This document shows, piece by piece, positions 17,214-21,743 of a stretch of DNA of 64,000 bases. Origin of the DNA: Myxococcota bacterium. Its GTDB lineage: Bacteria > Myxococcota_A > UBA9160 > SMWR01. The notes under the pieces are model-generated. The model made no database searches. It saw only the letters and a list, made by a program, of their open reading frames with translations, and was not told the origin of the DNA. How positions within the stretch are numbered: the first letter of the stretch is position 1; each line of letters opens with the position of its first letter. The position numbers and the translations under genes were made by a program. The stretch lies in the NCBI GenBank assembly GCA_036274295.1, contig DASUFZ010000291.1, positions 3,455-67,454 of the forward strand, read 5' to 3'.

Positions 17214-17723
17214 ATGCGCGCGCTGCCCTGGCGGATGCTCGTCCGCGACGCCCTGATCGTCGCGCTGACCTGGTTCGTCTGGCGCGCGGACGCGCTGCTG
17301 CGGATCGAGACGGGCTTCGTGCCGGCGGCGGTCGCGGTGCTGGCCGGCACGCTCGCCGCCGTCAGCGCCTACCTCGCGCACGAGTGGGGACATCTCCTCG
17401 CCGCGAAGGCGAGCGGCGCCGTCGTGCACTACCCGGAGCGGGTCGCGTCGACGTTCCTCTTCTACTTCGACGTCTCTCGCAACGACGCGCGCCAGTTCCT
17501 GGCGATGTCGCTCGGCGGCTTCGCCGCCAGCGCGATGGCGCTGCCCCTGTTGGTCCTCTGGCTGCCGGCCGGCGCGCTCTCGACCTGGGTGGCCTACGCG
17601 CTCGCCGGCGCCGGGCTCGTCGCGACGCTGGCGACGGAGCTTCCGCCGTTCTTCCGGGTGGCGCGCGGCGGGCGGTTGCCGCGGGGCTTCGTCTACCGCG
17701 AAGACGCGCGGCAGGGGATCTAG
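17214..17723 (+). CDS. Small membrane protein with HExxH motif (site-2 protease/M50-like)
   Basis: About four hydrophobic segments and YLAHEWGHLLAA. Confidence 0.6.
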   Translation: MRALPWRMLVRDALIVALTWFVWRADALLRIETGFVPAAVAVLAGTLAAVSAYLAHEWGHLLAAKASGAVVHYPERVASTFLFYFDVSRNDARQFLAMSLGGFAASAMALPLLVLWLPAGALSTWVAYALAGAGLVATLATELPPFFRVARGGRLPRGFVYREDARQGI

Positions 17724-17992
17724 TGGAGCGCGACGAGCTCCAGAAGACCCTGGCGCGTCTGCGCGCCGAGCTGCGCAACGGCCCGCCGCTCGACACCGGC
17801 GCGCGAGCCCAGCTCGAGGGGCTCGCGCACGACATCGAGCAGCGCCTGCGTCCGGATCGCACGGAGCCCGAGGCGTTGGAGGCGCTGGCGAAGAACCTGC
17901 GCGAGGCGATCGAGCGCTTCGAGGAGACGCATCCCGAGCTGACGGCCGCCGTGAACCGCGTGGCCGACGCGCTCTCGCGCATGGGCATCTAG
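17723..17992 (+). CDS. DUF4404-family protein
   Basis: C-terminal ERFEETHPELTAAVNRVADALSRMGI signature. GTG overlaps the upstream TAG. Confidence 0.8.
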   Translation: MERDELQKTLARLRAELRNGPPLDTGARAQLEGLAHDIEQRLRPDRTEPEALEALAKNLREAIERFEETHPELTAAVNRVADALSRMGI

Positions 17993-18276
17993 TCCGGCTT
18001 CGGCCCGTTCCTCCCGACGAGCGCCTGCGCCTCGCGCTTCGCGCGATGCAGCAGCCTGCGCGCCCACGCGAACTCCGCCGCCAGCACCGCAAGTCCCGCA
18101 CCGATGGCGATCACCCCCGGCCCGGGCAGCACGAGCATCGCCACGCCGAAGGCGAGCAGGGTTCCGCCGATGACGGCGACAGCCAGCTTGCGCGCCGTGC
18201 GGATCCCGAGCGCGAGCGTCCCGCCGCTCGGAGTTGCGTCGTCTCGCCGATCGTCCAGGAAGGCGAATCTAGCCAC
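17989..18276 (-). CDS. PGPGW-domain transmembrane protein
   Basis: MLVLPGPGVIAI…LAVLAAEFAWARR. Confidence 0.82.
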   Translation of the reverse strand: MARFAFLDDRRDDATPSGGTLALGIRTARKLAVAVIGGTLLAFGVAMLVLPGPGVIAIGAGLAVLAAEFAWARRLLHRAKREAQALVGRNGPKPD

Positions 18277-18282
18277 GCCGGT

Positions 18283-19788
18283 TCAGGCGTCGCCGGTCTG
18301 CTCCTCGCGCAGCGCCTCGAGACGCGTCGTCAGCTCTTCGACCTGGTAGCGCTCGCGCGCGCGCTCCAGGATGCGCCGCTCGACGCTGCGCGCCGCGTTG
18401 CGGACGGCCGTGTGCTCGCGGCCGAAGAGCCGCCCGATCTCGGCGGCGCTCGAGTCCGTGTGACGGAGGCACAGCGACATCGCGAGCTGGCGCGGCCACA
18501 GCACGTCGCGACGGCGCGTGCGCGCGGCGAGCGCGTCGGCCCGCACGCCGAAGAAGCCCGCGACGACCTCGATCACGTCGCGCGCAGCGAGCCGGCGCGG
18601 CGCGGCGGGAGCGGGCAGCAGTTTCTGCAACGCCCCGCGCGCGAGATCGATGTCCAGCGGCCGCTTCAGCAGCGACGCGCTCGCGACGAGCTGGATCAGC
18701 GCGCTCTCGAGATCGCGCACGCTGCCGCGCACCGATTCGACGAGCAGCTCGAGGCAGTCCTCGGGCAGGCGCACGCCGCCCGCCGCCGCCTTGCGCCGCA
18801 CGATCTCGCGCCGCACGCCGACGTCCGGCGGCTCGAGCTCGGCGACGAGCCCGGCCGCGAGCTGCGAGCGCAGCCGCGGATCGAAGTCCTGGTACTCGCG
18901 CGGCATGCGGTCGCCGGTCACGACCACGCGTGCTCCCACGTCGACGAGATGCGCGACGGTATGCAGCAGCTCGAGCTGCGTCGCGCGCTTCGCGCGCAGG
19001 AAGTGGACGTCGTCGATGACGAGCAGGCGCACGTTCTCGCGATAGCGGCGCTTGAAGCGCGCGGTCTCGCGGTTCCGGATCGAGGCCAGGAACTCGTTCG
19101 TGAATGCCTCGGCCGGCGCGTAGACGACGCGCCCGCCGTTGTGGTGGAGGGCTTCCACCGCGATCGCGCGCGCGAGGTGGGTCTTGCCGAGCGCGGCGCG
19201 CGAGAAGACGTAGAGCGGGTTGATGCGCTGCTGCTGCCCGCGCGCGACGGCGAGGCCGGCCTCGCGCGCAAGCGCGTTGCAACGCCCGACGACGAAGTTC
19301 TCGAAGCGGTAGGGCAGCTCGAGCTGGAGCGGTGCGGGCTGCGCGGCCATCTCGGAGGCGGGCTCCCGATCCTCGGCATGCTTCGACGTCGCCTGCGCCT
19401 CTTCCGATTCAGCCGGAACAACCGGGTTCCCAGACGATCTGGCGCGACGTCCCGAGCACGGCGGACTCACGACGAGCTCGAGCTCGACCCGCTGTCCGCG
19501 CTCGGCTTCGAGATGCCGCTCGATCAGCGGCAGCAAGCGCACGCGCACCCGCTCGCGATGGAACGCGGTCGGACACACGAGCCGTAGGCGCTCCCCCTCG
19601 ACGCGAGGCTCCAGGGGTCGTACCCAGGCCTCGAGCGTATGAGAGCTGATCTCGGCTCCGAGACGGCGCAGAACGCCATCCCAAAGTTGCTGGGGGGCTT
19701 GGCTCAATTTCTTCGTTCTACGGAGGATTTCGAGAGTTTGCGCCGGATCCCCATCGAACCCGTCTGGCGCGGCGCGGGAGTAGAGCAT
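18283..19788 (-). CDS. dnaA: DnaA-family protein (divergent paralog, domains I-IV)
   Basis: Domain I LWDGVL…AWVRPL, YRFENFVVG, NPLYV…LGKTHL, LLVIDDVHF, SVRDLE and domain IV PRQLAM…EIGRLFGREHT. Start uncertain. Confidence 0.88.
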   Translation of the reverse strand: MLYSRAAPDGFDGDPAQTLEILRRTKKLSQAPQQLWDGVLRRLGAEISSHTLEAWVRPLEPRVEGERLRLVCPTAFHRERVRVRLLPLIERHLEAERGQRVELELVVSPPCSGRRARSSGNPVVPAESEEAQATSKHAEDREPASEMAAQPAPLQLELPYRFENFVVGRCNALAREAGLAVARGQQQRINPLYVFSRAALGKTHLARAIAVEALHHNGGRVVYAPAEAFTNEFLASIRNRETARFKRRYRENVRLLVIDDVHFLRAKRATQLELLHTVAHLVDVGARVVVTGDRMPREYQDFDPRLRSQLAAGLVAELEPPDVGVRREIVRRKAAAGGVRLPEDCLELLVESVRGSVRDLESALIQLVASASLLKRPLDIDLARGALQKLLPAPAAPRRLAARDVIEVVAGFFGVRADALAARTRRRDVLWPRQLAMSLCLRHTDSSAAEIGRLFGREHTAVRNAARSVERRILERARERYQVEELTTRLEALREEQTGDA

Positions 19789-20081
19789 GGGTCGGACAGC
19801 CTTTCAATGACGAACGCTCGATTCGGTGACGACTCCTCTACACGAAAGTGTCACGCGTGTGCAGTGCGCATCACAGCGTCGGAAACCGGCGTTTTGCTCC
19901 GCTCTTCGCGCTTCGATTCCGCGGAGTTCAGCGCGCATCCTCGACCGCTGCCGACGCTCGTCGCGGCGTCTCGCCACACCGGCGTTCGAGATTCGGTGAT
20001 CTCTGTATTTCGAGGTTTCTCGCCTGAATCCTCGAAAATCCAGCCGCATGCAACGCGCGCGCGCGGAGAGCCGGCGCGAGC

Positions 20082-20750
20082 CTAGTGGAGCGGTCGGCGA
20101 CCCGGCTCCGCGCGCATCTCGAGCTCGGCGCGGCGGAACGAGAGCGCACTCGCGAGACGCGCGTAGCGCTCCGGAATGCTCTCGGCCTCGAGCAGGCTCT
20201 GCTTCTCTTCGCTCGGAAATGCAATGGCGTTCGCGAGCACGTTCACGAACGTCGCGTCGTCGATGCCGGCGAACAGCGAGGCGTCGAAGCGCGTGCCCTC
20301 GGATTCCGCCTCGCGCGCGAGATACGCGACGTTCTCGACGACGCTCGAGCGCAGGCGCGCGACGCGATCCCGCTCTTCCTCGGGAAAGGGTTCGTCGAGC
20401 GGCTGCACGCGCGCGACGCGGTAGAGCCGCTCTGCGGGGCGCGGCTCCTCCTCGACGATGCGGAAGCGCCAGATGCCGTGCAGCACGAGGTCGTAGCGGC
20501 CGTCGGGCCGCTTCTGGAACTCCGTGATCTCGCCGCAGCAGCCGACGGGATAGAGCGGCGGATCGCCGAGCATGTCGCCCTGGTGCTCGGGCCGCACGAC
20601 GGCCATCGCGATGTGGCGGTCCGCCTCGAGCACATCGTGCATCAGCTGGCGGTAGCGCGGCTCGAAGATGTGGAGCGGCGTCTTCACACGCGGGAAGAGC
20701 ACCACGTTCGAGAGCGGGAACAACGCGACGCGCGCGACGTCCGAAGGCAT
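20082..20750 (-). CDS. LON peptidase substrate-binding (N-terminal) domain protein
   Basis: LFPLSNVVLFP…PLHIFEPRYRQL, DGRYDL and EKQSLLE motifs. Confidence 0.9.
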   Translation of the reverse strand: MPSDVARVALFPLSNVVLFPRVKTPLHIFEPRYRQLMHDVLEADRHIAMAVVRPEHQGDMLGDPPLYPVGCCGEITEFQKRPDGRYDLVLHGIWRFRIVEEEPRPAERLYRVARVQPLDEPFPEEERDRVARLRSSVVENVAYLAREAESEGTRFDASLFAGIDDATFVNVLANAIAFPSEEKQSLLEAESIPERYARLASALSFRRAELEMRAEPGRRPLH

Positions 20751-20810
20751 GGGCGGAATCTATCATCCGCGTTGACCGCGGCAGCGATGGCTGGAACACT
20801 GCGAGCGATC

Positions 20811-21263
20811 ATGGATGCTGCGAGCCGCGCGTCGCTGCTCGAGAGCCTCACGCGCGACGCCGAACGGATCTCCCGGCAGTTCGGGCTCCGCTACAAATCG
20901 ATCGGCGCAGAGCGCGCGAACGTGACGAGCCGCTACGGCGTGTGCTTCGCAGATGGCGCGATCCGCATCCGCCTGCGCCACGCCGTCACGGGACGGCCGC
21001 TCAAGTACTCGAGCCTCGTGAACACCCTGTGCCACGAGCTCGCGCACCTGCGCCACTTCAACCACGGCCCGCGCTTCAAGGTCTTCTACTTCGAGCTGCT
21101 CGACTTCGCGCGCGTGCGGGGCATCTACCAGCCGGGGCCGGTCACCGCGGGCGTGCGCGCACTTCCCGACCCGTCGCCGTCTCTCGCGCGCTCGGCTGCG
21201 CGCGTGGGGGTTGGATCCCGCTCGCTGCCGCGCGGCGCGCCGACCCAGCTCTCACTGCTCTGA
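20811..21263 (+). CDS. Small zinc metallopeptidase (WLM/YgjP/SprT-like)
   Basis: YGVC…IRIRLR…TLCHELAHLRHFNHGPRF. Confidence 0.8.
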   Translation: MDAASRASLLESLTRDAERISRQFGLRYKSIGAERANVTSRYGVCFADGAIRIRLRHAVTGRPLKYSSLVNTLCHELAHLRHFNHGPRFKVFYFELLDFARVRGIYQPGPVTAGVRALPDPSPSLARSAARVGVGSRSLPRGAPTQLSLL

Positions 21264-21291
21264 AGTGCCGCCGATCGAGCGCGGCGGGGAG

Positions 21292-21492
21292 CTACTGCGT
21301 GATCTGGTCGTACTCTTCGAGCGTGTTCGGGCCGTCCTGGAGCTTCGCGGTGATCTCGTCGCAGGCGATGGCCTTGTCGAGGATCTCGCGGACGAGTCCT
21401 TCGACGGTGAGCTCGTCGTACTCGGCCATCGCGTCTTCGAGCGCGGTGTTCGAGACCGAGAACTGCACCAGGATCTTGATGTTGACGCTCAT
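21292..21492 (-). CDS. Small acidic hypothetical protein (66 aa)
   Basis: Strong GC3 codon bias and protein-like composition, unlike shadow ORFs. GGGAG upstream. Confidence 0.75.
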   Translation of the reverse strand: MSVNIKILVQFSVSNTALEDAMAEYDELTVEGLVREILDKAIACDEITAKLQDGPNTLEEYDQITQ

Positions 21493-21743
21493 CCCAGGAC
21501 TCTCGCTCCCTCCGGCTCGGTCGTGACGCCCGAAGGGGGCGGTTGCGTGCTCCCGAAACCGTCTCGAAGTGGCGGCGCCGAGCTCGTCTCGACGCTGTGT
21601 AGGCCCGGTCGCCGTGCCGCTTGGCGTGTCGGCTGTAACTACGCGAATTAGAAAGGTTTTTCGACCGAAGCGGCAAAAGGATACACCAGCGATCCACTCG
21701 CGGCCAAGAAAATTTCGACTGGCGTCAACTTTGCAAGCGCACC

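Follow-up and report, generated by a model that had tools for sequence, protein, structure and literature searches.

A divergent DnaA without the arginine finger as the probable initiator of replication in an order of uncultured bacteria

The dnaA locus and its surroundings

The window analysed here is a stretch of 64,000 nucleotides from a Myxococcota assembly, and it contains a divergent dnaA gene on the reverse strand. As the first-pass annotation of the window had described, an open frame of 501 aa covers 18283-19788 and reaches back to an ATG at 19788. However, the real start of dnaA is likely the TTG at 19707, because a start codon lies 1-9 codons ahead of a conserved Trp in all 51 orthologues that could be scored; in this gene the TTG is located 8 codons before that Trp. 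The gene would then occupy 18283..19707 and encode 474 aa. Residue numbers throughout follow the 501-aa frame.

Domains I, III and IV were recognized by the Pfam models DnaA_N, Bac_DnaA and Bac_DnaA_C, and the AlphaFold2 model (mean pLDDT 88.8) is that of a normal four-domain DnaA, consistent with the four domains recognized before. Superposition of its domain III on B. subtilis 8bv3 gives 1.4 A. The protein falls narrowly within the DnaA family as defined by TIGR00362 (351 bits vs a cut-off of 344), and four more divergent relatives score below that cut-off.

For comparative analysis, we used 170 genomes of the class, which we take to be UBA9160, including 147 of this order and 23 of a sister family; all genomes of the order are uncultured assemblies. 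The genes flanking dnaA encode a PGPGW protein and a LON N-domain protein, neither of them dnaN nor rpmH, and the exact box TT(A/T)TNCACA is absent from the whole window, in agreement with what had been observed in the flanks previously. The LON N-domain gene (PF02190; 20082..20750, reverse strand) encodes a stand-alone domain, is located upstream of dnaA in the same orientation and adjoins it in 69 of the 86 loci of both orders, with some copies duplicated or shortened. Its product is possibly a regulator or a protease adaptor. On the opposite strand, 20811-21263 encodes a small WLM/YgjP/SprT-like metalloprotease with a clamp-binding-like motif at its C-terminus (QLSLL), which is found near dnaA in 18 loci.

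A promoter-like element (TTGAAA, 17 bases, TCTACT; 19779..19807, reverse strand) overlaps ATG 19788 and is conserved in 35 of 51 orthologues; a strict sigma-70 scan found no promoter. Upstream of this element, a near-palindrome of CCG(A/T)CG(G/C) at 19874-19888 is conserved in both orders (23 of 51 by the strict pattern) and is also found in rpmH-dnaN gaps such as L031, L057 and L210. It is a candidate for either a weak DnaA site or the site of another regulator. An Rfam search of 17500-21500 returned nothing.

Conserved and altered residues of the protein

The protein was aligned with E. coli DnaA (named record) and B. subtilis DnaA (8BTG). Compared with E. coli DnaA, G172 is replaced by S196, G175 by A199, the finger R285 (R264 in B. 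subtilis) by Q309 (codon CAG) and DHTTVLHA by EHTAVRNA, while K178, T179, D235, D236, D269, R281, R334, R399, R407 and H434 are kept. These changes are not sequencing errors, because G001, a member of the same genus, carries identical motifs. The motifs that the first-pass annotation had named, including Gln at the finger and GREHTAVRNA instead of GRDHTTVLHA in domain IV, were thus confirmed by alignment. Two of its statements hold for this protein and less well for the order. The P-loop is indeed degenerate: Walker A (SRAALGKT, residues 196-203, 19180..19203) keeps Lys and Thr and departs from GxxGxGKT at S196 and A199. However, only the loss of the first Gly is widespread (58 of 70 genomes), whereas G175 is kept in 68 of 70 and G175A is a peculiarity of this genus. 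Similarly, Walker B (DD, 19009..19014), the sensor I Asp (D293) and the sensor II Arg (R358, E. coli R334, 18715..18717; kept in 67 of 70) are intact, but 64 of 70 genomes have ED as Walker B, so that the intact DD is again peculiar to the genus. Box VII reads RLRSQ (18862..18876), with R305 (E. coli R281) kept and Q309 at 18862-18864. All these motifs, and those below, are encoded on the reverse strand.

The initiator-specific motif (18970..19110) contains the trio-binding positions, which were mapped from the B. subtilis alignment. E227, N231, L234, I237, K246, R250, K267, T270 and E273 correspond to B. subtilis E183, N187, I190, I193, R202, R206, K222, T225 and E228, whose roles are those given in PMC10721633. 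From 68 to 70 of the 70 genomes retain the equivalents of E183, R206, K222, T225 and E228. Other positions are softened, which counts against an initiator: N187 survives in only 38 of 70 genomes, Lys replaces R202 in 64 of 70, and I190 varies between L, M and T.

To define what is special to the order, 51 of its sequences were compared column by column with 101 outgroup DnaAs, a non-random sample. Only three columns that are at least 90% conserved outside were lost in the order, namely G172, D235 and R285. The finger is R in 101 of 101 outgroup sequences, and in 70 genomes of the order it is Q in 43, R in 15, H in 5, K, T and E in 2 each and L in 1. On the conservation of the changes in the clade, a point raised by the first-pass annotation, the comparison supports it: Arg is absent from 55 of 70 genomes, and the recognition helix (GREHTAVRNA, 18394..18423) usually takes the form H-P-(A/S)-V-x-N in the order. 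At least 16 changes on the tree are needed for the finger column, at least 9 of them being required for Arg vs non-Arg, and because of this the site behaves as relaxed. Arg persists or returns in the remaining 15 genomes, so it may still help. Among the best 150 cluster representatives, Arg is found in 114 of the 119 without the markers of the clade; two of the five exceptions resemble members of the clade, the other three being outsiders. Within this set, loss of the finger elsewhere is thus rare, not unique.

In domain III, dN/dS was 0.07-0.34 for 12 pairs of the order vs 0.075-0.21 for 9 canonical pairs (NG86 ratios, which are crude at high GC). These values indicate normal purifying selection on the protein, and a general decay of the gene was rejected. 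The order has also gained near-invariant residues, i.e., R175, E176, R207, H280 and R327. R175 (19264..19266) is present in 68 of 70 genomes and in 0 of 101 outgroup sequences, and together with R207 (19168-19170) and R327 (18808-18810) it is a candidate for a rebuilt filament interface. A complex predicted for a pair of domain III molecules in the presence of ATP and Mg had a score of 0.00 and gave no weight to any reading. A link of R175 and R207 to regulator-resistant mutations of B. subtilis was dropped, as no supporting paper was found.

Occurrence of dnaA in the genome and the order

PF00308 and PF08299 each have one match in this 84%-complete genome. Unfiltered HMMs built from canonical and degenerate copies detected no second DnaA in it (next match E 0.004), nor was a second DnaA-like AAA+ protein found there. 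Where a canonical dnaA-dnaN locus was looked for, dnaN and rpmH were found on a separate contig in a head-to-head arrangement with 389 bases between them, and the slot for dnaA was empty. On this contig (G000:C66, L031), gyrB and gyrA directly follow dnaN with no recF between them.

Sixty of 61 related genomes had one full-length DnaA match, and weak extra PF00308 matches in relatives had E-values of 5e-10 or worse; dnaA was recovered more often than dnaN (60 vs 51 of the 61). In the census of the order, exactly one dnaA, always of the divergent type, was present in 141 of 147 genomes, and five fragmented assemblies had none. The last genome, G113, had two canonical genes on ~3-kb contigs, one of them next to a dnaN that shares just 44% identity with the local dnaN. 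The rpmH-dnaN locus of G113 itself is of the order's type, and the two canonical genes are best read as contamination. No own canonical dnaA was found in the 147 genomes, including the single-contig G043, G100 and G159, and neither was any convincing loss of the divergent gene. The rpmH-dnaN slot lacks dnaA on contiguous sequence in 49 of 49 loci (gap 294-947 bases; one further locus was incomplete). An assembly gap was therefore rejected as the cause of the missing canonical gene. Where both genes share a contig, dnaA is 60-1,800 kb away from dnaN. In the rest of the phylum, a DnaA match was found in 120 of 122 genomes, with nearly all scores at 185-240 bits vs at most 174 in this class.

The origin region and a candidate new box

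GC skew was examined in the three single-contig genomes. In G043, fourfold sites gave a positive skew in 8 of 10 samples over 50-2,300 kb, and all 10 samples over 2,550-4,760 kb were negative. The negative sign persists in all 9 blocks through dnaA (4,623 kb), after which the skew flattens. The cumulative minimum falls at 4,900-4,920 kb for fourfold sites and at 4,765 kb for raw skew, with dnaN at 4,898 kb, and a fine scan bounds the origin only to about 4.76-5.0 Mb. The switch in G100 lies between 4,840 and 4,980 kb, an interval that contains dnaN (4,904 kb); dnaA (4,756 kb) falls narrowly beyond it, an exclusion that depends on a single weak sample. G159 had no GC-skew pattern. Thus, in two of the three genomes a two-replichore skew puts the origin near dnaN rather than near dnaA. 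The first-pass annotation had considered that its view would fall if this were the only dnaA and sat at the GC-skew origin; the gene is the only one, but it lies away from the origin.

A motif search in the 190 bases before dnaN of 34 loci yielded TTTTGTC(G), which is a candidate new origin box of the order (TTTTGTCG-type); the variant of this genome is TTTCGTCGC. In 35 rpmH-dnaN gaps, TTTGTC was found 42 times vs 7.2 ± 2.8 expected and trio pairs 71 times vs 34.3 ± 5.8 expected, both above all of 60 shuffles, while canonical boxes were found 4 times vs 10.6 expected from shuffles. In most loci the forward new box is placed ~9-14 bases before the trio tract, and in many of them a reversed box lies ~44 bases further upstream. 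For comparison, the box-to-trio spacing peaks at 10-13 in PMC8287927. The layout of basal unwinding, with a box within 16 bases of the trios and upstream of dnaN, is therefore present, although the box differs from the published consensus.

Within the last 200 bases before dnaN, a canonical box (at most 1 mismatch) is found in 13 of 17 phylum outgroups (17 of 30 outgroup loci were counted, the other 13 not reaching dnaN), 8 of 8 loci of the sister family and 4 of 54 of the order. The corresponding numbers for TTTGTC are 1 of 17, 0 of 8 and 39 of 54. In the sister family, canonical-like boxes occupy the same two places as the new boxes of the order. The DHTTV helix that goes with TTATCCACA-type origin boxes, now left in only those 4 of 54 gaps, is absent here (EHTAV), and the new DNA specificity suggested by the first-pass annotation is likely. 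TTT(C/G)GTC was observed in only 3 of 49 genomes, the three with a His-Thr helix and an assembled origin, which belong to one clade. A pairing of His-Ser helices with TTCTGTC boxes failed (3 of 8 vs several His-Pro cases). Because kin are not independent, these counts describe one switch: box and helix changed on a single branch, which is not proof of co-evolution.

The new box was not enriched upstream of dnaA itself (6 vs 15 expected), and no autoregulation by it was seen there. In one genus (L336-L339, L201), an insertion of ~20-45 residues follows the Walker A helix in the AAA+ domain and the origin has tandem new boxes. Origin-prediction tools that rely on canonical boxes and the position of dnaA would likely miss these origins.

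Evolutionary origin of the gene

Among the 23 genomes of the sister family, 21 have two divergent DnaAs, one has one and one has three. The dnaN-linked copy lies between rpmH and dnaN in 6 of 6 fetched loci and before dnaN in 2 more; it is degenerate, has a short N-terminus, lacks the sensor II Arg and shows a domain III dN/dS of 0.42-0.46 (2 pairs). The displaced copy (type A) has the finger Arg in 8 of 8 sequences and, like this order, it combines an ED Walker B with a LON N-domain neighbour. In the trees, our gene joins the displaced copy (1.0; SH-aLRT 99 in a quick search), and both nest among deltaproteobacterial second copies including the second dnaA of G187 (0.80; SH-aLRT 97 in the quick search, a value to be trusted less as long branches are present). 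Since trees and LON synteny join the gene to displaced copies, it is a second dnaA copy by descent, and the dnaN-linked copy was lost in this order. In ancestry, then, the first-pass annotation was right to call it a second DnaA. The later trees do not distinguish a duplication from an ancient transfer, since they leave the dnaN-linked sister copy on a long unplaced branch.

Second-copy DnaAs of the same branch occur in other deltaproteobacterial lineages (L351 on G187:C203; P0043, P0124, P0033, P0053 and P0062). Unlike this order, G187 carries a canonical copy in addition, and the sister family retains one linked to dnaN. Most of these second copies keep the finger Arg; P0062 has Gln there and resembles the order at all three changed sites (Ser, ED and Gln).

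In the sister family, the dnaN-linked DnaA (L184, L186, L188, L190, L192, L195, L203, L206) has lost sensor II and much of the strand-binding motif, and keeps a constrained domain IV with HHTTALH. The two DnaAs are possibly a split-labour initiator pair in which the distant copy retains the finger. Upstream of the displaced dnaA, the type A loci (L183-L196) carry repeated TGTG(C/A)AC boxes that look like autoregulation; GCGAAG-like repeats are found in their place upstream of dnaA in this order.

Discussion

The sole DnaA of this order is probably a functional, stand-alone initiator that uses a new box and assembles independently of the finger. The altered domain IV would read the new origin box, and protomers would be loaded onto the DnaA-trios and capture bases as in B. 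subtilis. ATP should still be bound by the protein, which keeps Lys, Thr, D236, sensor I and sensor II. The filament would be held by the remodelled interface with the new R175, E176, R207, H280 and R327, and its assembly would depend little on sensing the gamma-phosphate of the neighbour. DnaB would then be loaded with DciA, both of which are present. According to PMC8287927, DnaA-trios should not be retained where initiation does not involve DnaA, which counts for an initiator, and the unwinding with ADP by three Gram-negative DnaAs is a partial precedent. On the other hand, the same paper reports that replacing the finger by alanine abolishes unwinding by the DnaA of B. subtilis and by those three DnaAs (S. 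elongatus, H. pylori and D. radiodurans), which counts against it. We also consider, with more reserve and short of calling it probable, that a second-copy DnaA took over initiation order-wide, rewrote the boxes and dropped the ATP switch of the finger. The filament would then be blind to nucleotide state in trans and timing would be achieved by another route, with the sister family at the two-copy handover stage.

Alternatively, the protein might need a partner for initiation, one that provides the missing contact or controls assembly, such as the upstream LON N-domain protein or another factor. The frequent LON neighbour, the new conserved surface residues that could form a partner site and the two different DnaAs of the sister family, an evolutionary setting for mixed complexes, are all compatible with this possibility. 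However, the LON link predates the loss of the finger, as the sister copy has both the LON neighbour and Arg in 8 of 8 cases, and the search for a second DnaA-like AAA+ protein in this genome was negative; we regard a required partner as unlikely. It is quite unlikely that the rpmH-dnaN gap fires without DnaA or through another box-reading protein, with DnaA serving as a transcription factor or helicase adaptor. Such an origin would fit the joint change of three residues of the nucleotide site, each with at least 90% conservation elsewhere, and the distance of dnaA from dnaN, and DnaA-independent initiation exists in some bacteria, as stated in PMC8287927. Against it, the order retains the trios, their spacing from the box and the trio-binding residues, dnaA has not been convincingly lost in 147 genomes, and several trios of this genome have a middle C, the one substitution that B. 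subtilis tolerates.

The first-pass annotation had instead seen a non-initiating paralogue that could cap or poison a true DnaA, which would have to be a canonical copy missed by the incomplete assembly. Membership in a second-copy family and the incompleteness of the assembly agree with such a paralogue, but the canonical slot is empty on one contig, none of the 147 genomes has a canonical copy of its own and the origin is devoid of canonical boxes. This reading is extremely improbable here and is refuted in the genomes searched.

Compared with the canonical DnaA and basal unwinding system (B. subtilis 8BTG and 8BV3; E. coli; TIGR00362; PMC8287927 and PMC10721633), the DnaA of this order shares the four domains, the domain III fold, most trio-binding residues and R281, R334, R399, R407 and H434, and its origin shares the box, the ~12-base spacer and the trios just before dnaN. 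It differs in the finger, the first Walker A Gly and the first Walker B Asp, all changed across the order, as well as in the recognition helix, the origin box, the distance of the gene from the origin and its second-copy descent.

The DnaA box of Thermotoga maritima is non-canonical. Its DnaA (PDB 2Z4R) is, like the present one, a sole initiator with a non-DHTTV helix (RSHPVV), but it keeps the finger, the Walker A Gly and DD. Hda and HdaA have the DnaA-type AAA+ domain in common with our protein and give weak matches far below the cut-off; they consist of AAA+ only and use the finger (PMC5295017), whereas domains I and IV are present here and the finger is absent.

The finger is called invariant, and in PMC8287927 it was needed for unwinding in all four species mutated. 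Our literature search, which covered mainly sources other than subscription journals, found no report of the DnaA of this lineage or of any sole DnaA that naturally lacks the finger. The sole DnaAs of this order, with Gln, His, Lys, Thr, Glu, Leu or Arg at the finger and with matching origins, would be natural tests of filament contacts, and such variants let one ask whether the ATP/ADP switch is universal. The order also offers a candidate new DnaA box with a matching helix. Finally, it may represent a rare case in which an essential initiator has been replaced by a paralogue while the intermediate stage is still alive.
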